This document shows, in pieces, positions 4,296 to 20,616 of a DNA stretch of 64,000 nt (positions are counted from its first letter, which is position 1; every line of letters begins with the position of its first letter). This DNA comes from Escherichia coli (GTDB taxonomy: Bacteria > Pseudomonadota > Gammaproteobacteria > Enterobacterales > Enterobacteriaceae). Below the pieces are notes generated by a model, which was not told the DNA's origin, did no database searches, and worked only from the letters and a program-made list of their open reading frames with translations. Both the position numbers and the translations under genes were made by a program. The stretch lies in the NCBI RefSeq assembly GCF_013315695.1, contig NZ_CP054353.1. One strand, given 5' to 3'.

Positions 4296-4350
4296 TTGAT
4301 TTTATTAGTAACAAGTATTTTTTATATTTTAATAATATATTTAAAGCAGA

Positions 4351-4874: not shown

Positions 4875-5174
4875 TCTACATTCCTTAACTTGAGCCTTTC
4901 GGCATAAATGGTTTGCATAACAGAAACGACTTCGTACTTAATTGGAGAGACTCAAAGAAGGAATAAGTGAATAACACCTGAAATGAGAACTGCTTTAGTA
5001 AACTACTTCGTATATCGTCTGTTCTTCAAACCGACGCAATCATTAACGCATAGTTGAACATATGAAGCAATGTTTATTTTAGACATCCAGCCATCTTCAA
5101 CCCCATCAAAAAACTATAGCTTTCTTCAGGAACGTGTGTATAGTGCGCCAAGTTATCAGTATTAAGGAATTTTT

Positions 5175-5387
5175 TTGTCCCGCAAAATGACAGGAATTGT
5201 CAAAACCTTTGACGGCAAAAGCGGCAAGGGTCTTATCACCCCATCCGATGGTCGTATCGATGTCCAGCTTCATGTTTCAGCGCTCAATCTCCGCGATGCA
5301 GAAGAAATTACCACCGGATTACGCGTGGAATTTTGCCGGATAAATGGTCTGCGTGGCCCTTCAGCTGCCAATGTTTACCTTTCATGA
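5175..5387 (+). CDS. cspF: Cold-shock-like protein CspF
   Basis: 70-aa [42 protein letters not shown]...; CspF/CspH subfamily, assigned cspF by position next to cspB. Confidence 0.8.
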
Positions 5388-5680
5388 GCTATATTAAAGC
5401 TTTAATTTCAGGCCCCATCGGATCACACATGGAGAGTTTTTATGAATAACCCCGTCTGTCTTGATGACTGGTTGATTGGCTTTAAAAGCTTATGCTGTAC
5501 TTTGGCCGTAATAGCTCTGCTAATAATATAATAAGCAGACTCATTGTGTTTAGGGACATTGTACTGGAAGAAAACATTTTAAACATCAGGCAAATAACCA
5601 AGTCACCAGCTAAATAATAAGTTAACAGACATGAGTCCCGGGATGAGATTCAACATTACCATTGCCCCATTTAAAGCACA

Positions 5681-5712
5681 AAACCCGCTCATCAGCGGGT
5701 TTTCTACTTTTT
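5681..5712. terminator. Hairpin terminator between cspF and the Q-like gene (aaacccgct-catc-agcgggttt followed by T-rich tract)
   Basis: Inverted repeat read directly; T-run on plus strand, weaker T-tract on minus strand; candidate late-operon tR-prime. Confidence 0.5.
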
Positions 5713-5808
5713 CTTAACGTCGGGTATACAAAGCCCATCGTTGAAAAAATTTTATCCATATTTTTTGAAAAATGCAAACATCATGTCGCCATCTTCAGCA
5801 AAAATCAT

Positions 5809-6561
5809 TTATCTCGTCACCTTCCTCAATTGCGCTTCCGCGTATGCTTCTTCCTGCCAGCACTTTGTTACCAGTTTACCAATGACGTCCGCATACCCCT
5901 TATACCACTGATAATCGGTCAGGTCTGGTACCAGCTTCTGGACATGACGTCGTGCCAGCGTGGTCGGTAAACGACTAAACCGGTTTCCATTACAACGCCC
6001 ACAAATCTTATATACCGGTACGCCATGAAACCGGGTTCTTTTTTCATCCAGAACAATCCCTTTACCCTTACACCCTCTGCACGCTGTGCTGGCTTCGCCC
6101 TTACCATGGCAATGCTGACATAGTTCCTTCACCCATTCTTCCTTGATTACAGATTCCCCGCGTCTGTAGTGTTTCACCACTTCGCGCAATACATTATAAA
6201 ATCCCGTACCTGAACAATGCTCACAGCGAGCCTTACTTGCCGCAGACCTGGAGTAATCAGCAAAGGCAAAACTCACGAGGTAAGGAATAATCTGTAACCG
6301 GATTTCTTCACTCAATTTGTTCAATGTCGGGTTATTCAGTGCCATCGCGTAATTTAGCAGGCCTTCAATCGCAAACTGAGGGTCCTGAACACCAACTTTT
6401 GCCAGAAATAAGGCCAACCCAAGTGGTGCTTTCGACTGCACCATCCCCTGCGCTGCCATTACATCCGTAATTGTTAAACAACCGGTGCCTGTCGCTGGAG
6501 CGTCATCGCTCAATTTTGGAGATTTTGGGGAGTAATATTTTGGTAAGGCTTCAAGGTTCAT
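5809..6561 (-). CDS. quuQ: Q-like late-gene antiterminator
   Basis: ORF 5809..6591; cysteine-rich zinc-binding region (CQHCHGKGEAS...CRGCKGKG...CGRCNGN) typical of lambdoid Q proteins; lies upstream of the lysis cassette on the same strand. Confidence 0.75.
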   Translation of the reverse strand: MNLEALPKYYSPKSPKLSDDAPATGTGCLTITDVMAAQGMVQSKAPLGLALFLAKVGVQDPQFAIEGLLNYAMALNNPTLNKLSEEIRLQIIPYLVSFAFADYSRSAASKARCEHCSGTGFYNVLREVVKHYRRGESVIKEEWVKELCQHCHGKGEASTACRGCKGKGIVLDEKRTRFHGVPVYKICGRCNGNRFSRLPTTLARRHVQKLVPDLTDYQWYKGYADVIGKLVTKCWQEEAYAEAQLRKVTR

Positions 6562-6574
6562 GCTCGTTCTCCAC

Positions 6575-7663
6575 TTACGCCAGTACGCCAATTGCCAGCG
6601 CGCGATCGATAAAACGAAATATCAGCTCCAGTTGGGAGCCATACTTATCTTCAAATGCCACTGTATCCGTATGCAGCTCGTTGTGATGCTTTCTGCACAA
6701 AGGCAACACAAAGAGATCATGTGCTTTTGTTCCCATTCCGCCCTGCCCGTGACCAATCAGATGATGCGGATCGTCGGCTGGCATACCGCAGCAAGCACAC
6801 GGCTGTGTCTTAACCCAACGTGTGTATTTCTCCTTAACCCAGCGGCGACGTTTAGGCAGCTTCATGAAAGATTCCGGAGACTCTGGATCAACGGTGATGC
6901 TTACCACCGTCTTTTCCTGTGGTGATTTTTGTTGCTGGTGGGCGTAAGGCAACGGTGCAAGATTTTTTGTGCGTTGTTTCAATATGCTGGTGGCGGTCTG
7001 CTCTCCCGGTACGATGTCGCTTTCGCGGTACACCGAGCAGATTTTTTCCGCTGGTAATCCCAGCGAACGACGCGATACAGCCTCAGGTAGTGCATCCACC
7101 ACCTGATTGCAGACCGCCCACCAGGATAATTCAGCCAAAGATAATTCCCGCTCCTGCGTACCGCTTATTGCGTGACGGATGACGTCAATCACCCATGCTG
7201 TCAGATTTTGTTGAGCAAGCAGCTCCAGTGATTCCGATGTCTGGTCACGCAGTTGGTTGTCGCAGTGCCAGCACAACACCATTGCGCCGGTACCATAACG
7301 GTGAATGACTGTTTCAGTGTGATGGTAATCGCCATTAGGCCACTGGCAGGATGTAACATGACGTAATAGCCAGTCGGACAATGCGCCAACGCCGCCAGCA
7401 GCACGAATCACCCGTTCGTTACTAAAAAACGGCAGCAATGTTTTGTCTTCCGCCAGCGGCTGGCGAACGGCAGGAACGACTCCGGATGGCAGATTACGCA
7501 TGCTTTTTGGTTCCGGTTCCACCAGCACTCGAGGATTATGAAATATCTGTATGGATTCACGGCCCGGCTTAAGGACCACCAGCCCAAGCTCAGGCACCAG
7601 AACAGGTCTAAGTAATACCCGCACGTTACCTCCAGATCCGTTGCTGGAAAGTGCGGGACGCAC
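6575..7663 (-). CDS. ydfU: Prophage protein YdfU (DUF968-like, His/Cys-rich motif)
   Basis: 362-aa ORF containing ...CCGMPADDPHHLIGHGQGGMGTKAHDLFVLPLCRKHHNELH...; position before the Q-like gene. Confidence 0.6.
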   Translation of the reverse strand: MRPALSSNGSGGNVRVLLRPVLVPELGLVVLKPGRESIQIFHNPRVLVEPEPKSMRNLPSGVVPAVRQPLAEDKTLLPFFSNERVIRAAGGVGALSDWLLRHVTSCQWPNGDYHHTETVIHRYGTGAMVLCWHCDNQLRDQTSESLELLAQQNLTAWVIDVIRHAISGTQERELSLAELSWWAVCNQVVDALPEAVSRRSLGLPAEKICSVYRESDIVPGEQTATSILKQRTKNLAPLPYAHQQQKSPQEKTVVSITVDPESPESFMKLPKRRRWVKEKYTRWVKTQPCACCGMPADDPHHLIGHGQGGMGTKAHDLFVLPLCRKHHNELHTDTVAFEDKYGSQLELIFRFIDRALAIGVLA

Positions 7664-7904
7664 GTGGTGGGCGTTCGGAATAAGGCAGCCTGACAGAGAT
7701 TATCCAGTGCCGATAGTCGAGACTGAGAGCTTTCTTAACCTCGAACCCGCGCCTGCGGTAAGAATGAATCAGCCATTCGGCCTGTTCTGCAGTGCATGGA
7801 GGGTGCCGGAACCATTCAGACTTGAATGCGTGAGAATACCGCCCGTGCGTGCAGGCAAGAACGGGCGAATTATCAGAATTGTAATATTTTGCGTTGCGTG
7901 CCAT
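7626..7904 (-). CDS. Hypothetical prophage protein (92 aa), overlaps the ydfU start in another frame
   Basis: ORF MARNAKYYNSDNSPVLACTHGRYSHAFKSEWF...; no family recognised. Confidence 0.35.
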   Translation of the reverse strand: MARNAKYYNSDNSPVLACTHGRYSHAFKSEWFRHPPCTAEQAEWLIHSYRRRGFEVKKALSLDYRHWIISVRLPYSERPPRASRTFQQRIWR

Positions 7905-7970
7905 CGGTTTTCTCCGGTGGCACGGTGTTACTCAGCGGGAGTTCAGCCCCGCGCAAGATTGTAGATGAGT

Positions 7971-8222
7971 TTATTCTTCTGAAAAAGCAGAAAAGCCAGC
8001 TTTTATTCCGATCTCTTTCAATACCTGTAATGAAGTGACAAACTCACCGTCGCGCAAGATAAATCCGTCCGTCACTCGGGCATCCACAAAATTAATTAAC
8101 GCAGCCCCATTTTTTTGCAAACACACAATGCGGTAATGACTAACAATATTTCCATTTTCAACGCACACAGCATAGAGGCCATCTTCACAAAAAATTTTAC
8201 GCAGTTCTTCGATGTTCATCAT
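7971..8222 (-). CDS. rem: Hypothetical 83-aa prophage protein; possibly Rem
   Basis: 83-aa ORF located between ydfU and hokD; length and position match my recollection of rem; weak assignment. Confidence 0.4.
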   Translation of the reverse strand: MMNIEELRKIFCEDGLYAVCVENGNIVSHYRIVCLQKNGAALINFVDARVTDGFILRDGEFVTSLQVLKEIGIKAGFSAFSEE

Positions 8223-8340
8223 CAGAATCCTTCCGGATAATTAGCTCTCCCCTTTAAGGGACCATCCCTCTTATCCCTGCGCGCTACTTAAGTATTTTTG
8301 ATTCTATTCCGGCACCGTCCAGAACTTCAAATGCGTTGAA

Positions 8341-8370
8341 AATAAAAACAAAAACCCGCCGAAGCGGGTT
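8341..8370 (-). terminator. Rho-independent terminator of the relB-relE-hokD operon
   Basis: Hairpin aacccgc-cgaa-gcgggtt with a T-run on the minus strand, ~70 bp downstream of the hokD stop. Confidence 0.65.
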
Positions 8371-8438
8371 AAGTGCGGGTGCGTTGAGAATGCCTGCCAC
8401 ATCAGAGGTGGCGAGGGATTTCTCCCTCGCCGGGTCTC

Positions 8439-8594
8439 TTACTCCTCAGGTTCGTAAGCTGTGAAGACAGCGACCTCCGTCTGGCCGGTTCGGATTCGTA
8501 CCTCGCAGAGGTCTTTCCTCGTTACCAGTGCCGTCACTATGACGGTTAAACAGATGACGATCAGGGCGATTAACATCGCCTTTTGCTGCTTCAT
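8439..8594 (-). CDS. hokD: Hok-family type I toxin HokD/RelF (51 aa)
   Basis: Manual translation: MKQQK... at 8594 and ...EPEE-stop at 8439; 52 codons; below the ORF-track cutoff. Confidence 0.8.
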   Translation of the reverse strand: MKQQKAMLIALIVICLTVIVTALVTRKDLCEVRIRTGQTEVAVFTAYEPEE

Positions 8595-8665
8595 AGCCTG
8601 CTTCTCCTGTCAACGCAAAGCAGAAGTGTCACCTTCGGTGCGAAACAGAGATGTCATGCTTTGGT

Positions 8666-8953
8666 TCAGAGAATGCGTTTGACCGCCTCGCTATATACTT
8701 CCGAGCGTTCTCTTTTCCCAACAGAAATCACGAAAACGACAACTTTCTCGTCTATAACCTGGTATACAAGGCGATAGCCTGAAGACCGGAGCTTAATCTT
8801 GTAACAATCAGGCATACCACGGAGCTTGTTTGCTTCAATCCGGGGTGACTCAAGTACTTCAACCAGCTTCTTTTTCAACTGTTCACGTACCGTCGAGCCC
8901 AGCTTTCGCCATTCCTTTAGTGCCCGCTCGTCAAAATCCAGAAAATACGCCAT
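8666..8953 (-). CDS. relE: RelE mRNA interferase toxin
   Basis: 95-aa ORF MAYFLDFDERALKEWRKLGSTVREQLKKKL...; start overlaps the relB stop. Confidence 0.9.
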   Translation of the reverse strand: MAYFLDFDERALKEWRKLGSTVREQLKKKLVEVLESPRIEANKLRGMPDCYKIKLRSSGYRLVYQVIDEKVVVFVISVGKRERSEVYSEAVKRIL

Positions 8954-9192
8954 CAGAGTTCATCCAGCGTCACACGTACTGGCTTAGGATTACGAAGCCG
9001 TTCTTTCACTATCTCCACAAGTTCAGCATCTTCATCACTCAGGAGTGTCTGTTTGAACGGCAAGCGTTCATTGTCAGCGATATACTCGAGCATGAGACGA
9101 AGCGCTTCAGAAGGAGTTACACCCATTTTTTCAAGCGCGGCGTAAGAACGCGCTTTAAGTTCATCGTCAATACGCAGGTTAATGCTACCCAT
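8953..9192 (-). CDS. relB: RelB antitoxin
   Basis: 79-aa ORF MGSINLRIDDELKARSYAALEKMGVTPSEALRLML... (ribbon-helix-helix type). Confidence 0.9.
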   Translation of the reverse strand: MGSINLRIDDELKARSYAALEKMGVTPSEALRLMLEYIADNERLPFKQTLLSDEDAELVEIVKERLRNPKPVRVTLDEL

Positions 9193-9203
9193 GTCTTACA
9201 CCT

Positions 9204-9229
9204 CTTGTAATTACAAATGTCATTACAAG
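9204..9229 (-). promoter_or_regulatory. relBE operator region: two adjacent palindromes TTGTAATTACAA and TTGTAATGACAT just upstream of relB
   Basis: Inverted repeats read directly, 12 bp upstream of the relB start codon. Confidence 0.6.
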
Positions 9230-9522
9230 TATCGCACTACAACATGCTTAGGGCAAGTCACGAAGGAAGTCAGAAAGTAGTCGTAAGAACGGTGATCACT
9301 GTCCGCTTTGTGCCAGGAGCAGCCATTGCTAAGTCCATCCTGTATTGTGCAGGTCAGCTCGTTTTTAAAGAGTCCGGCCATCATCTTACTGGTACAGACA
9401 CCATATACTTTGTGACGGTCAGGCTACATATGCACAACTCAACTTATTCATCTATTTTTTGCTTTAGCATGTCAGTGTTGCTTTCTCGTCGGCGGGTGAG
9501 CGGTGACCTGACCTGTCGATAA
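9217..9522 (+). CDS. ydfV: Prophage protein YdfV (hypothetical)
   Basis: 101-aa ORF divergent from relB; positional assignment. Confidence 0.45.
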   Translation: MSLQVSHYNMLRASHEGSQKVVVRTVITVRFVPGAAIAKSILYCAGQLVFKESGHHLTGTDTIYFVTVRLHMHNSTYSSIFCFSMSVLLSRRRVSGDLTCR

Positions 9523-9674
9523 AGGAACGTAACACGTTTTATGCAACACCCGCATGCGGCAGAAAATTATTGCCGAACGTTTACCCCTGTCAACAAGCTT
9601 TACTTTCTGAGGCGCGCCAGCCCGCGAGGAAAACAATCTGAACATCAAACAATTAATGACACAAGAAATACGAT

Positions 9675-9701
9675 TAAAGATTTTTTTGTGCATGCCGATA
9701 G
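9675..9701 (+). promoter_or_regulatory. Sigma-28 (FliA) type promoter: TAAAGATT-N11-GCCGATAG upstream of flxA
   Basis: Match to the class 3 flagellar promoter consensus TAAAGTTT-N11-GCCGATAA read directly; ~25 bp upstream of the flxA start. Confidence 0.6.
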
Positions 9702-9724
9702 TGCTTTTTTAAAAGGAGAAATCT

Positions 9725-10057
9725 ATGTCTGTCACAATTCAGGGAAATACCTCAACCGTTATTTCAAACAACTCCGCCCCGGAAGGAACATCAGAAATAG
9801 CCAAAATCACAAGACAAATTCAGGTGCTGACTGAAAAGCTTGGGAAAATCTCATCGGAAGAGGGGATGACGACACAGCAGAAAAAAGAAATGGCTGCATT
9901 GGTACAGAAGCAAATTGAAAGCCTCTGGGCTCAACTGGAGCAGTTGTTAAGGCAGCAGGCAGAGAAAAAGAATGAAGACGCGACAGTTCAGCCTGATAAA
10001 AAAGAAGAGAAAAAAGACGATACAAATACCGCTGGCACCATTGATATTTACGTCTAA
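9725..10057 (+). CDS. flxA: FlxA (FliA-regulated protein)
   Basis: 110-aa ORF MSVTIQGNTSTVISNNSAPEG... with a coiled-coil-like middle and Lys/Glu-rich tail. Confidence 0.8.
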   Translation: MSVTIQGNTSTVISNNSAPEGTSEIAKITRQIQVLTEKLGKISSEEGMTTQQKKEMAALVQKQIESLWAQLEQLLRQQAEKKNEDATVQPDKKEEKKDDTNTAGTIDIYV

Positions 10058-10429
10058 GTGACAGCCGTATTGTGGCCCTCATCGGGCCACTTTTCGCCAT
10101 CAGCCTTTTCTTTAAAGACATATTATCTTTGTATCATTTCTGATAGTTAACATTACAAGATATAAGTAATGGACGCACTCCCAATTAGTCTATTTAAATC
10201 GCCACGAGTTTAACTGACAACCCATGATCAATTATGAATTGCAACTATTTCTGTAGTCACTTTTGTGGGGACAGTCCACAAAACTGCCAACTTCCGCTTC
10301 TTGCTCTTAGCGGACATTAGCATAGGCTATTTACCATAACGCCTCATTACGCGCACCGCCCAGACTGACTCAGCGCGTTTCTGGCATATCCCCGGTAAAA
10401 CAAGTAACAAACCACCCGAAAATGAACAC

Positions 10430-11900
10430 CAGAAACGCGACTTAAGAATCTACCCTATGAATGGATATGCACTCAACCGAATCGATCTTGGTTTCAATCT
10501 TTTTTATCGGGATCAGGCTTCTTTTTAGGTAACTTCGGGGGCTTAACTTGCTGATGACTTTGCGTTCGGCGCGTAAGCCAGGGATGGTCAGCTTTAGGTT
10601 TAACATAGTATTTTGAGCGTAAATCAATACGGGCATTATCCACTCGTTCATGGACACTCTTTTCATCATCCAGTGGTATAGGCTCCGGGCCATCAACATA
10701 CTTTTCCCAGCCCAGCGCTTTCCCGTCATACAGAACGTTAATTTCACCGTCAAAGTTCTCGCATACAGTAACAACCGAATGCCTAAGTCGATATCCCCGG
10801 CCCTCACTGCGTACCTGAAACGCACTGCTTTTGTACTGGAAAGTGAGATTTTTAGACAGAACGCGCTTCGCCTGTAGGCTGAAGATATAACCCAGTTCCT
10901 CTTCAGAATGGTGCACATCAAGATGAGCATTATCAGTAGTACGAGGCGACGTAGCGAACCGGTTGTTATAGGCTTCAATAAAGGTCGGCAACCATGCATT
11001 TGCTGTTTCAATATCACTGATATTCTGAAGCCGCATTTCTTTGACCAGCCTGTCCTGTAGTGTCTGATTGGCGCGCTCTACCCGCCCTTTTGCCTGCGGG
11101 CTGTTGGCATGGATTGGCTCGATGCCCAGTGTCTTTATCGCACGAGTGAACTGGGTCAGCTCACCTTCCCGCTCTGGGTTATTTACCCTGAATATACTGT
11201 GTCTATCAGAGTAGAGAGCGAGCGGTACGCCATGATCATTAAGGTAACCCCGGAGGGTTTCCATGTAAGCCCGGGTTGTTTCAGCAGGCACAAAACGCAA
11301 CGCCATCAACGCACTGGTGGCATCATCAATGAAAACGATCAGTGTACATCTGGGGCCTCGATTTTCAAACCAGTCATGAGGTGAGCCATCAATCTGGATC
11401 AGTTCACCGTAAGATGGTCGTCGCATGCGGCGTTGATATATACGGGCAATTTTACGACGGCGTTCACGCCATAACCCCTCTTCTATCATCCACTTTCTGA
11501 GAGTTTCAACGGATAAAGATAAACCGTGTATCTCGCGCAATTTTTCGCACGCAAACGTAGGTCCAAAATCAGCGTAACGGCCTTTGAGGAGTGAAATTAC
11601 TGTTGCTCTGAATTCAGTAGAAAAGGAATTATTAGGACGCTTTCCACGTCGGTGGGAAACCAGAGCAGAAGGCCCTTCATTTCTATACCGTTGCACCAGA
11701 CGTTTAACCTGCCGAATAGAAATGCCAATGCGTGCCGCAGCTTGTTCCTGAATAATCTGAAGTCGGTGGAGTTCCTTATGACTCATCGTAACAGTCTCTT
11801 TGATCATGAAAAATCCCCCAGAGAATTGTCTGGGGACATTTTAGAATGGTTCAAAGGGGACATTACAGCTTGGTGTTAACAATAGCCTGCTTCTCCGTGC
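10430..11900 (-). mobile_element. Probable insertion sequence carrying a single DDE (rve-type) transposase; boundaries approximate
   Basis: Single 437-aa transposase ORF flanked by non-coding DNA with GGGGACA-type repeats and a candidate imperfect terminal repeat (AGGCTATT... at ~10330 and ~11885); ends not resolved. Confidence 0.4.
10494..11807 (-). CDS. DDE transposase, integrase-core (rve) type with N-terminal HTH (IS481/ISNCY-like)
   Basis: 437-aa ORF with N-terminal HTH (AARIGISIRQVKRLVQRY) and core ...IDGSPHDWF...FIDDATS...YSDRHSIF...SPQAKGRVERANQTLQDRL... Confidence 0.6.
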   Translation of the reverse strand: MIKETVTMSHKELHRLQIIQEQAAARIGISIRQVKRLVQRYRNEGPSALVSHRRGKRPNNSFSTEFRATVISLLKGRYADFGPTFACEKLREIHGLSLSVETLRKWMIEEGLWRERRRKIARIYQRRMRRPSYGELIQIDGSPHDWFENRGPRCTLIVFIDDATSALMALRFVPAETTRAYMETLRGYLNDHGVPLALYSDRHSIFRVNNPEREGELTQFTRAIKTLGIEPIHANSPQAKGRVERANQTLQDRLVKEMRLQNISDIETANAWLPTFIEAYNNRFATSPRTTDNAHLDVHHSEEELGYIFSLQAKRVLSKNLTFQYKSSAFQVRSEGRGYRLRHSVVTVCENFDGEINVLYDGKALGWEKYVDGPEPIPLDDEKSVHERVDNARIDLRSKYYVKPKADHPWLTRRTQSHQQVKPPKLPKKKPDPDKKD

Positions 11901-12141
11901 CTTTCGGCACGTAAGAGGCTAACCTACATGTGTCTAGCATGAAATTGGCCTCAGATTAATGTTAAGCGTCTTGCAGGACGCGTAATGTTAACTGGGGCTT
12001 TTCTCTATCTGCCGTTGGTGTCCATGCCCGAGGCAGATAGCCTCAAGCACCCGCAGTCATTCTACTTAACTAAGATTTCCCCGCAAACCGTTTTTGTCCA
12101 GCACAGTAAATATCCAACTAAACCAATGGAGTTCGCTGTAT

Positions 12142-12321
12142 TTACCGCCAGTATTCAATGCACATGACCGCCATGAACACCCCTAAAAAAAGGGCATTTA
12201 TATATCCAAATATTAATATCAAAACATCAACTTTTTCCATATACCTTGCTGTGAAGATGATGGGCATACATGATGCGAACAACCAGAACGCAACAAACAA
12301 AAACTGCAATGCGTTTTTCAT
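12142..12321 (-). CDS. Small hydrophobic two-TM protein (59 aa), hypothetical
   Basis: ORF 12142..12360; internal start MKNALQFLFVAFWLFASCMPIIFTARYMEKVDVLILIFGYINALFLGVFMAVMCIEYWR preceded by a strong AGGAGG Shine-Dalgarno. Confidence 0.4.
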   Translation of the reverse strand: MKNALQFLFVAFWLFASCMPIIFTARYMEKVDVLILIFGYINALFLGVFMAVMCIEYWR

Positions 12322-13473
12322 TATTCCTCCTACAATCAATGTGCAATTACATTTAAACACACCTCAATTTGGCCGGACATATAAATATCTAAACCAGAAA
12401 AAATCACTTACATAGCGTTACAAACTCTTTAGTCTAAAGGTTCATCGTAAAACATTCCCCATACTTATCAGTCCGTTCCGCGCCAGGTAGCTCATTGCCT
12501 TATCTGGCAACCTGTAATCAGGTTTCCGCTTTTTCAGTTGGCTGGTCGTTTAACCGACATAGTTAATCCATTAATCTAGTTGCCGGATGTTGGTGGATTT
12601 TCGCGTTTTAGTTGTTCATAAAAGTGCACAGCTTTAACCAGTTCTTCTGATGTAACTGGGACTGGTGAGGCAGTGAATAAGGCCTGAATTTGATAGTTCG
12701 GCCTGTCGTTACAATCCTCTTTTTTCGGTACATATTTCCAGTCACCAGACCACTACTTCCCCTGAAAGTCCGTAACGCCTTTTTTTACGTAGCGATATCG
12801 CCATGCCACTGGTTTTGCTTGCCCCGCCGTTTCATGCCCTTCCTGATAATTAATCTCGCTCATTCATCGCCCCACTCATCACAATATGCTTCGACCGGAG
12901 TTTTTCCCGCTTCATAGTCATCACGCTAGGATTCGACATCAGCAGCACTTCCACCGCGTAACTCACCATAGTCCATTAATAGTTCATCCCGCTCTTCAAA
13001 ACTGATGTTATATTTAGCTGAACAAAAATCAGCCACTTTGTTCTTCCTCATCGTCTTTTATTTCGTGGTATGAGTAATTGCAGTAGTTAAAGAAAATTTC
13101 TTATGCTCCGTCATGAATTTCCTCAGGTGTTGCGTCATCGTCCACTTCGAATACATCCTCAAAATCTCCACCAGCTATTCCCGTTTCAATAATAATTTTG
13201 AACTTTCGCATTTCACTACCGCCCTTTCGGGCGGCCTCCTGATGTTCTGAGGGTGCAGAAATCCATCCGGTTAAGGATTAAATTTTATTTACAGAACTGA
13301 ATTTAATTATTCAGATATACGTATCTGTAGCCTTACGAATCTACTCACTGGATGCCTCTTTCATAAAAATAATCCAGTGGGTTTTATCGTTTTTTCCCTG
13401 TTCGTTGACAGATAACAGGTTTTCTGTCTGTCAGTGCCAGAATCTGGCTTACCGGTATTTGCGTTTCATTCCA

Positions 13474-13830
13474 TTAAAAAATCAGAACGCCGTGCGGCCT
13501 CAACACCCGAAAGGCTTCTTTAAATCTCTGTCGCGAATCATCACGCCAGGCATCTTTATTCAGCCGTCCATATTTCTTTCCCATCCAGGCGTTATCACCA
13601 ACACTCTCAAGATGCGGAGGGTCTAATACAACCATCGAAAAAGATGCGTCTGCAAATGATAATGCACGAAAATCTGCGATAATGTCAGGGCTGATAATCA
13701 AGCGTCTCCCATTGCGTAATGTGTATCCTTCTTTTCTGATATCGCTGAATATCGCCCGTTCGTCAGACTTATCGAACCAGAACATGCGGCTGCCACAGCA
13801 CATATCAAGAATGGTTGCCGGTGCACTCAC
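13474..13830 (-). CDS. DNA methyltransferase-like protein, probably C-terminally truncated
   Basis: 118-aa ORF with SAM-binding-like motif ILDMCCGS and catalytic-like motif VVLDPPH; ends abruptly after PHGVLIF. Confidence 0.4.
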   Translation of the reverse strand: MSAPATILDMCCGSRMFWFDKSDERAIFSDIRKEGYTLRNGRRLIISPDIIADFRALSFADASFSMVVLDPPHLESVGDNAWMGKKYGRLNKDAWRDDSRQRFKEAFRVLRPHGVLIF

Positions 13831-14249
13831 TGCGCCACGTCCTGAAAATTACCCTGATAGAAAGCCAGTATGCGCTGCATAACTTCGCTCTTCCGGCACT
13901 CGCGACAGATTATGTTTAGGCGACTGTCGTAGCGACGTATTTCTCCGTCAGGTGATGACCAGATAAGGTCCGGATCAACCACAGCAGGTTTCTTCACCTT
14001 TGCCCTCGAGAGTTTTTTGCGGGCGTTTTGCCAGTCCTTACGCGCCTGTTCAGAGGGGAATAACCCGTAGCCGGAGTTGTATACATCGCCACTGGCTACC
14101 AGCTCTCTGGCAAGAACGCTCATCAGATATCTAGTCGCACCTGTTTTAGCTTCCAGTTGCCGTAACGTCTCACGGCCGCTCTGGCGCACGAGTTCCACCA
14201 CCTGCCATTTAATTTTTTCCCGCTCTTCTTGTGTAAAAACTTTTGCCAC
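13827..14249 (-). CDS. Hypothetical phage early-region protein (140 aa)
   Basis: ORF between the replication-initiator-like gene and the methyltransferase-like gene, overlapping start/stop; no family recognised. Confidence 0.35.
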   Translation of the reverse strand: MAKVFTQEEREKIKWQVVELVRQSGRETLRQLEAKTGATRYLMSVLARELVASGDVYNSGYGLFPSEQARKDWQNARKKLSRAKVKKPAVVDPDLIWSSPDGEIRRYDSRLNIICRECRKSEVMQRILAFYQGNFQDVAQ

Positions 14250-14289
14250 AAGTCCCCCTTAAAATTACCTCATGACCTGAAATCAACAC

Positions 14290-15255
14290 TTATCCTCTGA
14301 AACCAGGCGGAATTTCTGTATCCGGTTCAGAAATATGATTAACACAACGCTGTACAGGTGAACGTCCCAGGCGGATGACCAGTTCGTCCCATTTTTCGCG
14401 GAGCTTTGACGGGCTCATGATGTTTTTTACCCAGAATGGATCTCGCTGAACCCGACCAAACATTTCGCAAATTTGTCTGTGGCTTCTGCCATCCAGCATC
14501 CGCATTGTGCGCACGTCATTGGCCCAGGCAGTCCAGTTAGGCTCTTTTGGTCGCATGATCTCGCCATCATCACTGGCTGCCTGTTCGTAGAGACCCACGA
14601 TCCGCCCCCAGATCCACTGCGCACACGCCAAATCCTCCCTGCTACCCCACTGGCGTTTTTTCGCACTAAACACAACCGCGTCGGAGTTCCGGGTTAAAAA
14701 ATCCTGTTCAGTCGTCTGCGGGTCCGGTTGCGAAGCTTCCGGACGAAAAGTGTTTTTATTCTCTGTAGTAATCTCTGTTGTATTCTCTGTAAGATCATCA
14801 GGCCATTTTGACCCGATGACATTGGGTCGTTTTGAACCAATGGAGCGTTTCATTTTGACCTCTTCCATCGTGTCATTTTGACCTGATGGAGCGGCGCATT
14901 TTGAACCGATGGATTCGCTCAATTTGCCACCATCTAAAAGCTCGCTCCCATAGTTGATCGTGTAGAAATTGGTCATATCGCGCTTTGATTTATTGAGCTT
15001 TTCACAACGCAAAAGCCCCAGCGTTTTCAGACTTGCAAACGCGCGCTTTAACGTTGACTCTGACCAGAATGGGAACTGTTCCAGCCATTGTTCCGTTGTG
15101 TTATAAATCCAGCGAACACCATCACATTCCATGCCGGAGTTGGTATCTCTCAACCAGTAGTGCAGTTGTTGCAAAACAATGGCTTCGTTTAAGCCAATTT
15201 TCATTGCCAGCTGCGTGTTTATAACCAGTGGGCGTTCAGCAAAAAGAAGGCTCAT
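14290..15255 (-). CDS. Phage replication initiator-like protein (lambda O-like), iterons inside the coding sequence
   Basis: ORF 14290..15309 (likely start MSLLFAERPL at 15255); the SIGSK...SIGSK...VIGSK peptide repeats are encoded by a DNA iteron array. Confidence 0.5.
   Translation of the reverse strand: MSLLFAERPLVINTQLAMKIGLNEAIVLQQLHYWLRDTNSGMECDGVRWIYNTTEQWLEQFPFWSESTLKRAFASLKTLGLLRCEKLNKSKRDMTNFYTINYGSELLDGGKLSESIGSKCAAPSGQNDTMEEVKMKRSIGSKRPNVIGSKWPDDLTENTTEITTENKNTFRPEASQPDPQTTEQDFLTRNSDAVVFSAKKRQWGSREDLACAQWIWGRIVGLYEQAASDDGEIMRPKEPNWTAWANDVRTMRMLDGRSHRQICEMFGRVQRDPFWVKNIMSPSKLREKWDELVIRLGRSPVQRCVNHISEPDTEIPPGFRG
14803..14935. repeat. Iteron array (~6 copies of CATTTTGA(A/C)C(C/T)GATGG at ~23-bp spacing); candidate prophage replication origin
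   Basis: Repeats read directly at ~14803, 14827, 14850, 14873, 14896 and 14919. Confidence 0.6.
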
Positions 15256-15757
15256 AATTCCATCCAGCTTTTTGTTGGTATTGCTGTCGATACGCAAGTT
15301 TGAAAGCAATTGCTTTTTCTATAAGTTCGTCAGTTTCACGATCCACTACGGCAGGATCAGCAAAAAGCAGTCCGGACTCCACCACATCGCCATATTCTTT
15401 GTTTAACCCGGCGATCATGCACGTGATGCTTTTTCCGTCAGTAATTTCACGATACAACCTGAAATCATTAATCCGGATAGCCTCCATAATTGCAGGCACT
15501 AGCGCCGTGAACTTTTCACGCTTATCCCTAGTGTCGATAGCCTTCCAGCGTTCAAATATCTTCACTCGATTAACGCCAAGCGCTCGCTGATCAATCGCGC
15601 CACCTTCATATGTGACACGCTGAACATCGATGTTCGGGCGCTCTTTCAAAGCCCAGAATGCTTCAGTGATTAATATCGTCGCCTGCTCCTGTGTCATTCC
15701 TGGTCGACATATCCAGGCATCCAGAGCCTCACGAGCCTGTTCAGGAGTGATTTTCAT
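15236..15757 (-). CDS. Hypothetical phage early protein downstream of the Cro-like gene (173 aa)
   Basis: ORF overlapping the dicC stop; no family recognised. Confidence 0.4.
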   Translation of the reverse strand: MKITPEQAREALDAWICRPGMTQEQATILITEAFWALKERPNIDVQRVTYEGGAIDQRALGVNRVKIFERWKAIDTRDKREKFTALVPAIMEAIRINDFRLYREITDGKSITCMIAGLNKEYGDVVESGLLFADPAVVDRETDELIEKAIAFKLAYRQQYQQKAGWNYEPSFC

Positions 15758-15971
15758 TGTTCAACCGCCCCGCCCGCTTCGTCTTACGATATTCATCATA
15801 AACTTTGGGATCATACTGAAGCTCCCCGCCAGATGCCTCCTGTAGACGCATCGCGCGACCTTCGGGAACTAAATCCCCTTTCCAGCTATAAAGCGAAGCC
15901 AAACGAATACCTGCTGCTTGTGCAAGTTTTGTTTTTGAACCGAAATACAAAAGAGCGTCAGTTTTAAGCAT
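15741..15971 (-). CDS. dicC: DicC, Cro-like regulator of dicB
   Basis: 76-aa ORF MLKTDALLYFGSKTKLAQAAGIRLASLYSWKGD... (HTH), divergent from dicA. Confidence 0.8.
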   Translation of the reverse strand: MLKTDALLYFGSKTKLAQAAGIRLASLYSWKGDLVPEGRAMRLQEASGGELQYDPKVYDEYRKTKRAGRLNNENHS

Positions 15972-15988
15972 TTAAAACACCTTTATTG

Positions 15989-16052
15989 TTAGTCATAACT
16001 AACAAGATAGATGTTAACAAAAACATAGTCAATACGATTTAGCATTAGCTAA
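15989..16052. promoter_or_regulatory. dicA-dicC intergenic operator region with palindromes TTAGTCATAACTAA and TTAGCATTAGCTAA
   Basis: Inverted repeats read at 15989-16002 and 16039-16052 between divergent HTH regulator genes. Confidence 0.55.
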
Positions 16053-16054
16053 CT

Positions 16055-16462
16055 ATGGAAACAAAAAATTTAACTATCGGCGAACGCATCAGGTATCGTC
16101 GGAAAAACCTCAAACACACCCAAAGGTCTCTTGCTAAAGCCCTGAAAATCTCCCATGTGTCTGTATCACAATGGGAACGGGGTGATAGTGAACCTACAGG
16201 GAAGAACCTTTTTGCCCTCAGCAAAGTATTGCAATGCTCACCAACATGGATTCTATTTGGCGATGAAGACAAGCAACCAACACCACCTGTTGAGAAGCCA
16301 GTTGCCTTATCCCCCAAAGAACTAGAGCTCCTTGAGCTGTTTAATGCACTGCCAGAATCAGAACAGGATACCCAGCTCGCCGAAATGCGAGCTCGAGTAA
16401 AAAACTTCAATAAACTCTTTGAAGAATTACTAAAAGCCCGTCAGCGGACAAATAAAAGATAA
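16055..16462 (+). CDS. dicA: DicA, HTH repressor of the dicB operon
   Basis: 135-aa ORF METKNLTIGERIRYRRKNLKHTQRSLAKALKISHVSVSQWERG... (Xre-type HTH). Confidence 0.9.
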   Translation: METKNLTIGERIRYRRKNLKHTQRSLAKALKISHVSVSQWERGDSEPTGKNLFALSKVLQCSPTWILFGDEDKQPTPPVEKPVALSPKELELLELFNALPESEQDTQLAEMRARVKNFNKLFEELLKARQRTNKR

Positions 16463-16534
16463 CATCATCAATGAGTTATCTTTTACCACATCAATTATGT
16501 TAGCTATAGCATACAAAATCACTTGACCGATATG

Positions 16535-16548
16535 TTAGTCATGGCTAA
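16535..16548. promoter_or_regulatory. Third copy of the DicA-operator-like palindrome (TTAGTCATGGCTAA) upstream of ydfA/dicB operon
   Basis: Same palindrome family as in the dicA-dicC intergenic region. Confidence 0.5.
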
Positions 16549-16628
16549 TCTTGTTTGCATCAACACACCGCACGGTGTTCTCAGCAAACAGTTCCGCTAC
16601 CCCAGCGTTAAGGGGAAATGAGGTCAGC

Positions 16629-16784
16629 ATGGATACTATCGATCTTGGCAACAACGAATCTCTGGTGTACGGCGTGTTTCCAAACCAGGACGGCACGTTC
16701 ACCGCAATGACGTATACCAAAAGCAAAACGTTTAAAACCGAAAATGGTGCCCGTCGCTGGCTGGAAAGAAACTCAGGTGAGTGA
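16629..16784 (+). CDS. ydfA: YdfA (51 aa)
   Basis: Internal start MDTIDLGNNESLVYGVFPNQDGTFTAMTYTKSK... within ORF 16551..16784. Confidence 0.7.
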   Translation: MDTIDLGNNESLVYGVFPNQDGTFTAMTYTKSKTFKTENGARRWLERNSGE

Positions 16785-16785
16785 T

Positions 16786-16914
16786 ATGGATTTCGACACA
16801 ATCATGGAAAAGGCTTACGAAGAATACTTCGAAGGCCTTGCCGAAGGCGAAGAAGCTCTCAGCTTCAGTGAGTTTAAACAGGCGCTTTCCAGTTCGGCAA
16901 AATCTAACGGCTGA
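16786..16914 (+). CDS. ydfB: YdfB (42 aa)
   Basis: Manual translation MDFDTIMEKAYEEYFEGLAEGEEALSFSEFKQALSSSAKSNG-stop. Confidence 0.65.
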   Translation: MDFDTIMEKAYEEYFEGLAEGEEALSFSEFKQALSSSAKSNG

Positions 16915-16943
16915 TAAGCGAAACAGCACCGCGAGGAATCAGT

Positions 16944-17162
16944 ATGCAGAAACGAGAACCCGTCATCATCGCGCCAGACTATACCGATGATGAACTTTAT
17001 GAGTGGATGCGCCAGAAAATTAATGCAGCGCAGGATCTGAAATGGGCTAATGAAGCCAGGGCTAAGCAGGCTGAAAATCTGTTCTCTCTGGAGCAGGATA
17101 TCACCAGGCTGGAAAAAGCAGCGGCATTAAGCATTGCCAGAATGATTACATACCCGCGTTAA
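16944..17162 (+). CDS. ydfC: YdfC (72 aa)
   Basis: ORF MQKREPVIIAPDYTDDELYEWMRQKINAAQDLKWANEARAK... Confidence 0.75.
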   Translation: MQKREPVIIAPDYTDDELYEWMRQKINAAQDLKWANEARAKQAENLFSLEQDITRLEKAAALSIARMITYPR

Positions 17163-17502
17163 TAGCTAACCAACGAAGCTAAGGTTGGTAATTAAGGAGT
17201 TCTCCACGGGTGAGGTGGAGTGCGTGCGCCGGACACGGGTGAGCATCCGGCACTGACAGTTTACTGAAAGGATATTTCCATGAAAAGTCAGACCATAACG
17301 CGAAAGCGCACGGCGAGGTAGCTGGTTCATAGATAGCCTGTCGTTAAATTTTCGTCGACCGTGCGCTTCCGGTTGTGGCAACCCGCGAAATGGCGCGGCG
17401 GTAAGTATGGCGGGGTTATTCCTTCCCCGTTGAGGACACCGGGTTGTCAGGTTGACCATACGCTTAAGTGACAACCCCGCTGCAACGCCCTCTGTTATCA
17501 AT

Positions 17503-17557
17503 TTTCTGGTGACGTTTGGCGGTATCAGTTTTACTCCGTGACTGCTCTGCCGCCCTT
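17503..17557 (+). ncRNA. dicF: DicF small regulatory RNA (anti-ftsZ)
   Basis: Sequence TTTCTGGTGACGTTTGGCGGTATCAGTTTTACTCCGTGACTGCTCTGCCGCCC followed by TTTTT matches DicF as I remember it; directly upstream of dicB. Confidence 0.8.
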
Positions 17558-17729
17558 TTTAAAGTGAATTTTGTGATGTGGTGAATGCGGCTGAGCGCAC
17601 GCGGAACAGTTAAAACCAAAAACAGTGTTATGGGTGGATTCTCTGTATCCGGCGTTAATTGTTAACTGGTTAACGTCACCTGGAGGCACCAGGCACTGCA
17701 TCACAAAATTCATTGTTGAGGACGCGATA

Positions 17730-17918
17730 ATGAAAACGTTATTACCAAACGTTAATACGTCTGAAGGTTGTTTTGAAATTGGTGTCACTATCAGTAACCC
17801 AGTATTTACTGAAGATGCCATTAACAAGAGAAAACAAGAACGGGAGCTATTAAATAAAATATGCATTGTTTCAATGCTGGCTCGTTTACGTCTGATGCCA
17901 AAAGGATGTGCACAATGA
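17730..17918 (+). CDS. dicB: DicB cell-division inhibitor (62 aa)
   Basis: Internal start MKTLLPNVNTSEGCFEIGVTISNPVFTEDAINKRKQERELLNKICIVSMLARLRLMPKGCAQ in ORF 17625..17918. Confidence 0.85.
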   Translation: MKTLLPNVNTSEGCFEIGVTISNPVFTEDAINKRKQERELLNKICIVSMLARLRLMPKGCAQ

Positions 17919-18106
17919 ATTCAGCATTTGTGCTTGTTCTGACAGTTTTTCTTGTTTCCGGAGAGCCAGTTGATATTGCAGTCAGTGTTCACAGGACAAT
18001 GCAGGAGTGTATGACTGCAGCAACCGAACAGAAAATTCCCGGTAACTGTTACCCGGTCGATAAAGTTATTCACCAGGATAATATCGAAATCCCGGCAGGT
18101 CTTTAA
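17915..18106 (+). CDS. ydfD: YdfD (63 aa)
   Basis: Internal start MNSAFVLVLTVFLVSGEPVDIAVSVHRTMQECMTAA... in ORF 17861..18106; start overlaps the dicB stop. Confidence 0.75.
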   Translation: MNSAFVLVLTVFLVSGEPVDIAVSVHRTMQECMTAATEQKIPGNCYPVDKVIHQDNIEIPAGL

Positions 18107-18162
18107 AACAGTTCCGTAATAAATATCCGGTTTCATTCTTATATGCCAACAATGGCAGGGAT

Positions 18163-19326
18163 TTGTTCATCCTTAAATCTGTCATGAGGTTAAAACAAAT
18201 GAGTAAAGTCTTTATTTGCGCCGCTATTCCTGACGAACTGGCAACAAGGGAAGAAGGCGCTGTGGCTGTAGCCACAGCCATTGAAGCTGGCGACGAACGC
18301 CGTGCTCGAGCAAAATTTCACTGGCAATTCCTGGAACATTATCCGGCTGCTCAGGACTGCGCTTATAAATTTATTGTCTGCGAGGATAAACCTGGCATAC
18401 CCCGCCCTGCCCTCGATTCATGGGATGCTGAATATATGCAGGAAAACCGCTGGGATGAGGAGTCTGCTTCTTTTGTCCCGGTTGAGACTGAATCCGATCC
18501 GATGAACGTCACTTTTGACAAGCTGGCCCCTGAAGTACAGAACGCTGTCATGGTTAAGTTCGACACATGTGAAAACATCACCGTTGATATGGTTATTAGC
18601 GCACAGGAATTGTTGCAGGAAGACATGGCAACATTCGACGGACATATCGTTGAAGCGTTGATGAAAATGCCAGAAGTTAACGCCATGTATCCGGAGCTTA
18701 AGCTGCATGCCATCGGGTGGGTTAAGCATAAATGTAAGCCTGGTGCCAAATGGCCCGAAATTCAGGCAGAGATGCGCATCTGGAAAAAACGTCGCGAAGG
18801 TGAACGTAAGGAAACCGGAAAATACACGTCTGTTATTGATCTCGCCCGCGCCAGAACCAATCAACAGCACAGTGAAAATTCAACAGGAAAAATCAGCCCG
18901 GTCATTGCTGCCATTCATCGCGAATACAAGCAGACATGGAAAACACTGGATGACGAACTGGCCTACGCTCTCTGGCCTGGTGATGTGGATGCCGGAAACA
19001 TTGACGGCAGCATCCATCGCTGGGCAAAAAATGAAGTTATCGACAACGACCGCGAAGACTGGAAGCGTATCTCGGCATCAATGCGCAAACAGCCTGATGC
19101 CCTTCGCTACGACCGCCAAACTATTTTTGGCCTTGTCCGTGAGCGTCCGATCGACATTCACAAAGATCCCGTAGCACTGAACAAATATATCTGCGAATAC
19201 CTGACGACAAAGGGCGTGTTTGAGAATGAAGAAACAGACCTGGGCACTGTTGATGTTCTCCAGTCATCAGAAACACAAACTGATGCAGTGGAAACTGAGT
19301 ATTTCCAGACATCTGTTATCACTTAA
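18163..19326 (+). pseudogene. ydfE: ydfE-like prophage gene whose 3-prime end runs into IS2 (C-terminus replaced by IS-derived codons)
   Basis: ORF continues 27 bp past the IS2 boundary at 19300 before stopping; true start uncertain (candidates at 18199 or 18403). Confidence 0.55.
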
Positions 19327-20202
19327 CCCATTACAAGCCCGCTGCCGCAGATATTCCCGTGGCGAGCGATAACCCAGCGCACTATGCGGATGCCATTCGT
19401 TATAATGCTCGAACGCCTCTGCAAGGTTCTTTGCTGCCGTTAACCCGTCTGGTTTGGGCATGATACTGATGTAGTCACGCTTTATCGTTTTCACGAAGCT
19501 CTCTGCTATTCCGTTACTCTCCGGACTCCGCACCGCCGTGTTCTTCGGTTCAAGTCCCAACATCCGGGCGAACTGGCGTGTTTCATTAGCCCGGTAGCAT
19601 GAACCATTATCCGTCAGCCACTCCACTGGAGACGACGGAAGATCGTTGCCGAAGCGGCGTTCCACCGCTCCCAGCATGACGTCCTGTACTGTTTCACTGT
19701 TGAAGCCGCCGGTAGTGACCGCCCAGTGCAGTGCCTCACGATCACTGCAGTCCAGCGCGAACGTGACACGCAGTCTCTCTCCGTTATCACAGCAGAACTC
19801 GAACCCGTCAGAGCACCATCGCTGATTGCTTTCTTTCACGGCCACTCTGCCTGTATGTGCCCGTTTCGATGGCGGTACAGCAGGTTTTCGCTCAAGCAAC
19901 AGCGCATTCTGGCGCATGATCCGGTAAACACGTTTGGCATTGATCGCAGGCATACCATCAAGTTCTGCCTGTCTGCGAAGCAGCGCCCATACCCGACGAT
20001 AACCATACGTGGGCAGCTCTCCGATAACATGGTGTATACGGAGAAGCACATCCGTATCATCAGTGTGACGACTGCGGCGGCCATCCATCCAGTCATCGGT
20101 TCGTCTGAGAATGACGTGCAACTGCGCACGCGACACCCGGAGACAACGGCTGACTAAGCTTACTCCCCATCCCCGGGCAATAAGGGCGCGTGCGCTATCC
20201 AC
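19267..20202 (-). CDS. insD: IS2 transposase OrfB (InsD) with ~10-codon C-terminal extension into flanking DNA
   Basis: 311-aa ORF; body matches InsD through ...[11 protein letters not shown], then continues [10 protein letters not shown] because the normal stop lies in the missing IS2 terminus. Confidence 0.85.
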
Positions 20203-20616
20203 TTTTTTGCCCGTCCATATTCAACGGCTTCTTTGAGGAGTTCATTTTCCATCGTTTTCTTGCCGAGCAGGCGCTGGAGTTCTTTAATCTGCTTCATGGC
20301 GGCAGCAAGTTCAGAGGCAGGAACAACCTGTTCTCCGGCGGCGACAGCAGTAAGACTTCCTTCCTGGTATTGCTTACGCCAGAGAAATAACTGGCTGGCT
20401 GCTACACCATGTTGCCGGGCAACGAGGGAGACCGTCATCCCCGGTTCAAAGCTCTGCTGAACAATTGCGATCTTTTCCTGTGTGGTACGCCGTCTGCGTT
20501 TCTCCGGTCCTAAGACATCAATCATCTGCTCTCCAATGACTAGTCTAAAAACTAGTATTAAGACTATCACTTAAATAAGTGATACTGGTTGTCTGGAGAT
20601 TCAGGGGGCCAGTCTA
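19300..20616 (-). mobile_element. IS2 copy (1317 bp), missing ~14 bp of one terminus
   Basis: insC/insD ORF pair; one end GGTTGTCTGGAGATTCAGGGGGCCAGTCTA intact at 20587-20616; the other end matches IS2 only from TATTTCCAGACATCTG inward. Confidence 0.8.
20160..20525 (-). CDS. insC: IS2 OrfA (InsC)
   Basis: ORF 20160..20570 with internal start [41 protein letters not shown]... Confidence 0.85.

Follow-up and report, generated by a model that had tools for sequence, protein, structure and literature searches.

A 64-kb stretch of Escherichia coli DNA from contig NZ_CP054353.1 (the window) carries a Qin-type prophage whose early region is far more complete than that of E. coli K-12. The retained DNA is the lambdoid early-right operon from the middle of the prophage, and most of it has been lost in K-12. 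Two events very probably account for the arrangement as a whole: the early region was deleted in K-12, and a transposon carrying the relBE toxin-antitoxin genes inserted before hokD. The minus strand of the window carries the early operon. The annotation is taken from a listing of open reading frames (ORFs) and from the public Prokaryotic Genome Annotation Pipeline (PGAP) annotation of the identical stretch in E. coli MSB1_4I. MG1655 (NC_000913.3, 1640000-1656000) is the reference for K-12 and was compared by blastn of the window and by direct reading of the junction. Counts of junctions and intervals were made across 5426 complete E. coli genomes.

The K-12 deletion itself is an ordinary strain difference in a cryptic prophage. 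Its use lies mainly in tidying annotation, where ydfW becomes a transposase stump, ydfX becomes a cII-like stump, and K-12 is left without the Qin origin, the initiator gene, and sokD. The transposon would give the much-studied K-12 relBE locus a vehicle and an insertion event, and with them a mechanistic origin for the relBE-hokD operon.

The early region lost from K-12

MG1655 aligns to the window at 3320-10678 (99.76% identity) and 15478-18965 (99.26%), and blastn finds nothing between. The gap and the genes at its edges are the following.

10677-15477: segment of 4,801 bp absent from K-12 MG1655 (blastn against NC_000913.3 and reading of the junction)
10494-11807, minus strand: DDE transposase of the ISEsa1 family (ISNCY/IS1202), 437 amino acids (NCBIfam NF033594, 455.7 bits against a cut-off of 250, residues 14-368 of 437)
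15236-15757, minus strand: YdaT-family, cII-like protein, intact at 173 amino acids (PHROG 163, 'CII-like transcriptional activator', 5.5e-40)
15741-15971, minus strand: dicC, cro-like, the first gene of the operon and present in K-12 (NCBIfam NF007282)

Both the colinearity and the deletion are read directly from this comparison. The two ends of the missing segment share a 2-bp microhomology, the dinucleotide TA, within TAGGCTCC and TAGCCTCC. Neither inverted repeats nor a target duplication is present at the K-12 junction. The first-pass annotation had described about 5.7 kb between flxA (9725-10057) and dicC as apparently missing from K-12. Each feature it listed there is recovered by the ORF listing, PGAP, NCBIfam, or PHROG, and the span from flxA to dicC does measure 5.7 kb, but the DNA that K-12 lacks is the smaller segment above. 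Of the DNA between flxA and dicC, K-12 keeps 10058-10676 (including ydfW) and 15478-15740 (ydfX). A gap-free colinear alignment to K-12, the result it had named as contradicting it, was not obtained; the alignment has one clean gap.

This is the same prophage as K-12 Qin, at the same site. The flanks are colinear and 99.3-99.8% identical, gene order is equal, and the gene names agree on both sides. K-12 Qin differs in lacking most of the transposase gene, one of the terminal inverted repeats of the transposon (IRL), sokD, the nin-like remnants, the methyltransferase, the DUF977 gene, the initiator with its origin, and the 3' part of the cII-like gene. It also lacks DNA on the exonuclease/integrase side.

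K-12 is almost certainly the derived, deleted form of Qin, because ydfW and ydfX are in-frame stumps, the junction is bare, and the genome counts and the match to phage PhiR42_1 agree with a loss. What is annotated as ydfW in K-12 is the transposase gene's final 49 codons, in frame. K-12 ydfX consists of the first 93 codons of the YdaT-family gene, which has 173 codons when intact, with three junction codons added, and removal of 10677-15477 in silico leaves 93 YdaT-family codons followed by Thr-Thr-Gly, which gives 96 amino acids, the length of K-12 YdfX. The K-12 junction occurs in 360 of the genomes, an intact right breakpoint in 2122, and at least 80% of 9500-16500 in 274. PhiR42_1, a 48.7-kb record from ECOR13 that was deposited as a complete phage genome, carries the early region at 99.7%.

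The opposite direction, in which a K-12-like remnant gained the 4.8 kb, either through an insertion or through recombination with another lambdoid phage, is highly improbable. Lambdoid prophages are mosaics, and the O genes here and in phage vB_EcoS-640R1 differ except for their last 20 codons; therefore, module exchange does occur in the region. However, an insertion would need to complete two unrelated ORFs in frame, and each K-12 stump is a truncated piece of a gene found whole in the window. The flanks also stay 99.3-99.8% identical up to the breakpoints, and the junction bears no inverted repeats or duplication. Because both ydfW and ydfX are completed in frame here, an ancestral K-12 state is in effect refuted.

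In the deletion reading, the K-12 lineage would have undergone a single illegitimate deletion of 4,801 bp, with one end within the transposase gene and the other within the cII-like gene. This event would have left ydfW and ydfX as stumps and taken IRL, sokD, the origin, and the initiator. The suggestion that this strain retains an ancestral, more complete early region holds for completeness but not for integrity, since the methyltransferase and three small genes of the operon are pseudogenes.

A second difference from K-12 lies at 18966-22470, where the exonuclease VIII-like gene is complete here but split by a full IS2 (about 19303-20616). The DNA from that gene up to the excisionase and integrase genes matches PhiR42_1. 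K-12 has only an IS2 fragment there (IS2E), with ~2.8 kb absent, and the arrangement looks like an IS2-associated deletion.

A probable relBE transposon between hokD and its sok leader

In the window, hokD and the leader that belongs to it are separated by a relBE-carrying transposon of the IS1202 family. Its boundaries are probably those given below, with the whole moving as one unit.

8439-8594, minus strand: hokD ORF, now directly downstream of relBE and the second terminal inverted repeat, IRR (ORF listing, PGAP)
8593-8607: left target-site duplication, 15 bp, ATAGCCTGCTTCTCC, which includes the Shine-Dalgarno sequence of hokD together with the first two bases of the ATG
8608-11881, minus strand: the transposon, 3,274 bp, with IRL, transposase, flxA/ydfV cargo, relB, relE, and IRR (inverted repeats and 15-bp direct repeats)
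8608-8633, plus strand: IRR, TGTCAACGCAAAGCAGAAGTGTCACC, 32 bp beyond the relE stop codon
8666-9192, minus strand: relE (8666-8953) and relB (8953-9192) (ORFs, PGAP)
9320-10288, plus strand: variable cargo, consisting of the 3' two-thirds of the ydfV ORF (9217-9522) and flxA (9725-10057) (comparison with 12.8-, 4.2-, and 2.6-kb relatives)
11856-11881, minus strand: IRL, TGTTAACACCAAGCTGTAATGTCCCC (minus strand), 48 bp upstream of the transposase ATG
11882-11896: right target-site duplication, 15 bp, a direct repeat of the same ATAGCCTGCTTCTCC
11881-12052, minus strand: orphan hok/sok leader (sokD region and mokD start), absent from K-12 (Rfam RF01794 sok)

The inverted repeats and the target duplications are direct observations. 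The terminal inverted repeats match at 19 of 26 positions, and both ends start with TGT. In vB_EcoS-640R1, the hok locus is uninterrupted, and the insertion in the window relative to it runs from the hokD side to past the transposase gene. An "IS-like element" had been noted in the interval between flxA and dicC at first pass; the transposase is there, but the full element is larger and starts at 8608, outside that interval.

Comparison of cargo variants divides the transposon into two conserved arms with a variable insert between them. The relBE arm extends from 8608 to about 9320 and comprises IRR and relBE. The transposase arm is 10289-11881, which is 1,593 bp, or 1,620 bp with a 27-bp deletion restored. 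The transposase equals the 446-amino acid WP_004196353.1 with one substitution and without nine residues, SINRHITQE, that the in-frame 27-bp deletion at 11746/11747 takes from the N-terminal DNA-binding region; all plasmid copies have this sequence. PGAP tags the transposase ORF as 'missing C-terminus' only because it splits off ydfW. No inner inverted repeat lies at the boundary of the transposase arm at 10289 within 9 mismatches. The sole IRL-like match is a weak one of 17/26 at 9327-9352, the boundary between the relBE arm and the cargo, and it is within chance (~0.3 per scan by our own estimate). The unit would have moved by DDE transposition, with relBE acting as stabilizing cargo.

The first ~100 nucleotides of ydfV belong to the conserved relBE arm, where the divergent relBE promoter region is, and the remainder belongs to the variable cargo. 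In relatives whose cargo differs, no more than the first 20 codons are kept. The ydfV ORF may thus be a chimeric ORF rather than a real gene.

The Rfam model RF01794 covers the hok leader up to the ATG. It matches the orphan leader over its full length with 104.1 bits (gathering score 59), and the match stops precisely where the transposon does. The N-terminus of Mok is divided between the two sides of the element, with the leader part at 11925-11881. The hok ORF and the mok/sok leader, which are contiguous in vB_EcoS-640R1, are therefore 3,274 bp apart here. The transposon would have inserted 13 nucleotides upstream of the hokD ATG with a 15-bp duplication, cutting hokD from its mok/sok leader and placing it behind relBE. 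The product would be the known relB-relE-hokD (relF) operon. Such an insertion would explain why hokD has no adjacent sok partner and is co-transcribed with relBE. The account fits the known fact that relB, relE, and hokD/relF are transcribed together (Gotfredsen and Gerdes 1998, cited by PMC5120126). It also fits the statement that relBE integrated into an ancestral hokD ORF of ~70 codons (PMC6379469).

The junction between hokD and IRR is found in 1164 of the E. coli genomes and the junction between IRL and sok in 686, and the difference includes the 360 genomes with the K-12 deletion. When these 360 are also subtracted, 118 genomes remain that have other deletions of the right end of the transposon (E. 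coli EC06, for example). Therefore, this part of Qin has eroded more than once.

Related elements and their insertion sites

The 3.3-kb unit is found at 99.2-99.8% identity on 16 plasmids, and the sites that were read lie at the same position before hok-family genes. Sites and relatives with readable structure are listed here.

Enterobacter IncF plasmid, hok site: duplication ATGGCCTTCTTCTCC
E. coli IncI-gamma/K1 plasmid, hok site: duplication ATCATAGCCCCTCCA
E. coli IncK2/Z plasmid, hok site: duplication (C)ATCGCAGCCCCTCCA
Citrobacter plasmid, hok site, 4,155-bp variant with different cargo: duplication CATGGCCTTCTTCTCC
Klebsiella michiganensis pKOCBH-A, non-hok site, 12,843 bp (5657-18499 of the record), with relE-relB, HupE/UreJ, chrBA, ncrABCY, and transposase: perfect 16-bp duplication TATCGTGCCCCGTGAT
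Two elements in one Citrobacter genome, non-hok sites, 9,684 and 10,144 bp, transposases 81-82% identical: perfect 16-bp duplications
Decayed copy of 2,575 bp: transposase and relBE only

The target duplication is 15 bp in Qin and 15-16 bp at eight further sites, where its sequence differs. The unit occupies this position in at least five hok alleles besides that of Qin, and wherever both ends are readable the duplication is specific to the locus, as in four such alleles on plasmids; the independence of these insertions is read directly from the duplications. The seven sampled sites, which represent six distinct hok alleles, all have an oriented insertion at one position before the hok gene. 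The same hok-type flank is present at IRL in Kluyvera and Pseudocitrobacter contigs. It is rather likely that these sites reflect targeting of hok loci, as opposed to spread by recombination. If true, the IS1202 family would have, in addition to its XerC/D targeting, a second kind of target specificity, namely oriented insertion at one base position in six hok alleles.

At least four cargo variants share both arms, and the variable insert ranges from 0.3 to 10 kb. The 12.8-kb version, which carries chromate (chrBA) and nickel (ncrABCY) genes, occurs at ≥80% coverage in 174 plasmids, mostly from Klebsiella and Enterobacter. Further variants have cation-diffusion-facilitator and cytochrome b cargo. 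The same two-armed transposon thus carries the 12.8-kb nickel/chromate block and other metal-transporter cargo. The two Citrobacter genome elements (9.7 and 10.1 kb) contain no relBE, and their cargo consists of miscellaneous metabolic genes; a universal presence of relBE in the wider family is ruled out by them.

The IS1202 family is characterized by TGT-ended inverted repeats of 24-26 bp, direct repeats of 5-6, 15-17, or 27-28 bp depending on the subgroup, and occasional passenger genes (bioRxiv 10.1101/2022.12.17.520857; PMC10132070). One of its subgroups, ISAba32, targets XerC/D sites and inserts 5 bp away. The Qin element belongs to this family by its transposase, which scores above the cut-off of the model and carries a helix-turn-helix at its N-terminus, by its TGT-ended inverted repeats, and by its duplication, which is within the 15-17 bp range of the ISTde1 subgroup. 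It is not a plain insertion sequence (IS) of 1.3-1.75 kb with a transposase as the only gene, for its inverted repeats enclose 3,274 bp with relE, relB, ydfV, and flxA. It fits instead the 'transporter IS' exception (PMC10132070), of which ISKpn21 is an example. It differs from described members in the toxin-antitoxin operon at its far end, in its variable insert, and in its position at hok sites in contrast to the XerC/D targeting of ISAba32.

A named relative is ISEsa1. In the PGAP annotation, the plasmid copies are called 'IS1202-like element ISEsa1 family transposase', and the transposase arm, at 1,593 or 1,620 bp, is close in length to the ISfinder entry of 1,609 bp. That entry has inverted repeats of 15/22 and no target duplication 'when multiple examples were examined' (PMC10132070, Table 7). 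The link to ISEsa1 is based on the PGAP family name of plasmid copies that are 98% identical and on this published table. The unit bounded by inverted repeats and duplications differs in size, being 3,274 bp here and 2.6-12.8 kb in relatives. The ISfinder entry would thus cover the transposase arm only, and the likely reason that no duplication was found for a 1.6-kb ISEsa1 is that the true bounded unit is larger.

Several observations weigh against the two-armed transposon. The ISfinder definition conflicts with boundaries 3,274 bp apart, unless the entry is indeed the transposase arm only. One plasmid copy has non-matching flanks; therefore, homologous recombination between hok loci also moves the unit. 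The Qin copy itself may be immobile, because its transposase lacks nine amino acids of the DNA-binding region.

In a narrower alternative, the mobile element is the 1.6-kb ISEsa1 (10289-11881) only, the relBE-flxA stretch is ordinary DNA that happens to adjoin it, and the end on the relE side is a chance or surrogate end that was used once and then spread by recombination between hok loci. The definition of ISEsa1 as 1,609 bp agrees with it, as do the mismatched flanks of that one copy, which suggest recombination, and the hundreds of plasmids that match just the 1,620-bp arm of the query. However, in pKOCBH-A, the 'arm-only' plasmid that was examined, the arm is part of a 12.8-kb unit whose relE-side end is the same and whose 16-bp duplication is perfect. 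No sequence resembling an inverted repeat is present at 10289, and the published searches saw no duplication for the 1.6-kb unit (PMC10132070). A surrogate end used once also conflicts with five hok sites that each have their own perfect duplication and with the cargo variants, at least four in number, that share both arms. The narrower alternative is accordingly quite unlikely, and the element bounded by IRL and IRR is preferred.

Beyond Qin, we lean toward a general account in which ISEsa1-type elements are cargo transposons with a transposase arm and an outward-reading relBE arm that make 15-16-bp duplications. One lineage would insert 13 nucleotides upstream of hok starts in a fixed orientation and so would have made relB-relE-hok operons repeatedly. 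The relBE/'relF' locus of K-12 would be a decayed copy, and the metal-resistance cargo on Klebsiella and Enterobacter plasmids would travel in the same vehicle.

Tn3-family transposons reportedly carry toxin-antitoxin pairs in their transposition module. The elements described here resemble them in that a type II toxin-antitoxin operon is constant and other cargo varies. They differ in having an unrelated, IS1202/IS481-like DDE transposase and in the position of relBE, which lies at the end opposite the transposase and is read out toward the target. The literature searched, which had most subscription journals outside its reach, yielded no description of an IS1202-family transposon that carries relBE and targets hok, and none of PhiR42_1.

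Two smaller observations concern the insertion sites. In Enterobacter hormaechei p49589CZ_IncFII (3058-3124), IRL of one family member and IRR of another adjoin, separated by a 15-bp hok-like spacer, CAGGCCTTCTTCTCC. The arrangement could be a tandem insertion into a regenerated target or the fossil of a circle junction. On the IRL side, the hok sites have a small hairpin immediately past the duplication, as do three of the non-hok sites (L015, which is pKOCBH-A, L016, and L019), and judged by eye it is not present at L020, L021, and L030. A role for this hairpin as a general target signal is a weak idea.

Genes of the early operon and the presumed origin

From the dicA/dicC switch, the order of the operon is dicC, the cII-like YdaT gene, the O-like initiator, DUF977/LygF, a decayed methyltransferase, decayed nin-type genes, and hokD/sokD. 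This gene order agrees with that of vB_EcoS-640R1. The identities of the genes and the iterons are read directly. In addition to dicC and the YdaT-family gene, the region contains the following.

14290-15255, minus strand: O-like replication initiator, 321 amino acids from the PGAP start or 339 from an upstream TTG, to 15309 (PHROG 391, 'replication initiation O-like', 1.3e-91)
14796-14927, minus strand: five iterons inside the initiator gene, with cores at 14804, 14828, 14851, 14874, and 14897
14745-14795, minus strand: AT-rich patch of 51 bp adjoining the iterons, with three 12-bp repeats (70.6% AT against 51.7% for the gene)
13827-14249, minus strand: DUF977/LygF/Ren-like protein, intact at 140 amino acids (PHROG 142)
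13357-13830, minus strand: DNA methyltransferase pseudogene (PHROG 954; tblastn with QBP07693.1)
12611-13211, minus strand: three decayed nin-like small genes (tblastn of intact vB_EcoS-640R1 ORFs, PGAP pseudogene flags)
12142-12360, minus strand: possible small two-helix membrane protein, 72 amino acids, or 59 from the ATG at 12321 (ORF, not annotated by PGAP)

The first-pass annotation had placed "two hypotheticals" beside the initiator in a replication module. Both are present and can now be named as the cII-like YdaT protein and DUF977/LygF. A PDB sequence search with the YdaT-family protein returned no relative, and one with DUF977 returned chance-level matches only.

The iteron core is GKTCAAAAYG, with a spacing of 23-24 bp. 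It has eight matches in the window against 1.09 expected, and five of these are clustered in the initiator gene. The iteron region is the likely origin of the prophage, because its layout matches that of ori-lambda. Counting against the initiator assignment, the protein has no Pfam domain at E <= 0.001, including no Phage_rep_O. The next gene is DUF977/LygF, and no gene for a P or DnaC-like helicase loader follows the initiator.

The early-right operon of lambda contains cro, cII, O with in-gene iterons and an AT-rich region, P, ren, and nin. The Qin operon is similar in its cro-like gene, its cII-like gene, its initiator with in-gene iterons followed by an AT-rich patch, its Ren-like/DUF977 gene, and its small nin-type genes before Q. 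It differs from lambda in having no P or DnaC-like loader, no Pfam Phage_rep_O domain, and a DnaT-like tail on the initiator, as well as five iterons of ~23 bp as opposed to the four of ~19 bp in lambda. The Rac prophage has a ydaS-ydaT-ydaU-ydaV-ydaW module, in which ydaV is DnaC-like. In both modules, a cro-like gene precedes a YdaT-family gene, and a replication gene and a DUF977 gene come next. However, the DnaC-like ydaV of Rac has no counterpart here, and the sequences are not close.

The C-terminal 21 codons of the initiator (14290-14352) encode VQRCVNHISEPDTEIPPGFRG, a near match to the extreme C-terminus of host DnaT (PDB 2ru8, 6aep, 9zbt). The otherwise unrelated O protein of vB_EcoS-640R1 (7176-7238) has the same DnaT-like tail, and two PHROGs match the tail only. 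Given that O lacks a following loader gene, the tail may serve as a portable docking peptide, mimicking DnaT to recruit the host primosome or DnaB-DnaC. These residues are not discussed in a 2026 preprimosome paper.

Whether the retained region is a less-eroded fossil or still functional, so that the prophage could replicate or be induced, depends on the balance of intact and broken genes. dicC, the cII-like gene, the initiator with its iterons, and the DUF977 gene are intact, and a near-identical region is present in the 48.7-kb PhiR42_1 record together with integrase, excisionase, and lysis genes. However, four downstream genes are pseudogenes, the exonuclease VIII-like gene in the window is split by IS2, the initiator is not followed by a helicase-loader gene, and no induction data for PhiR42_1 were found in the literature searched. 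A functional early region is therefore doubtful.

The decay of the four downstream genes can be followed in detail. The methyltransferase, a class I S-adenosylmethionine-dependent enzyme by PHROG 954, has an open part at 13474-13830 (minus strand) of 118 amino acids that keeps the DMCCG and DPPH motifs. Compared by tblastn with the 160-amino acid Klebsiella phage protein, it is interrupted by an in-frame stop at codon 119 and changes frame near codon 144, and no full-length ORF of ~160 amino acids is present. Among the nin-like genes, the homologue of an 85-amino acid protein (12611-12863) is frameshifted, and the homologue of a 58-amino acid protein (12863-13036) and the DUF7167 homologue (13032-13211) each contain an internal stop.

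The small membrane protein ORF at 12142-12360 has no Pfam domain. Its relatives are found only in Escherichia and Shigella, and the ORF is kept in a relative that is 76% identical. It is plausible that this ORF is coding, although its status stays uncertain because only these close relatives are available.

Beyond the early operon, the small RNA DicF is present and intact at 17504-17555 (76.7 bits) and is followed by a sub-threshold STnc100 match at 17553-17762.

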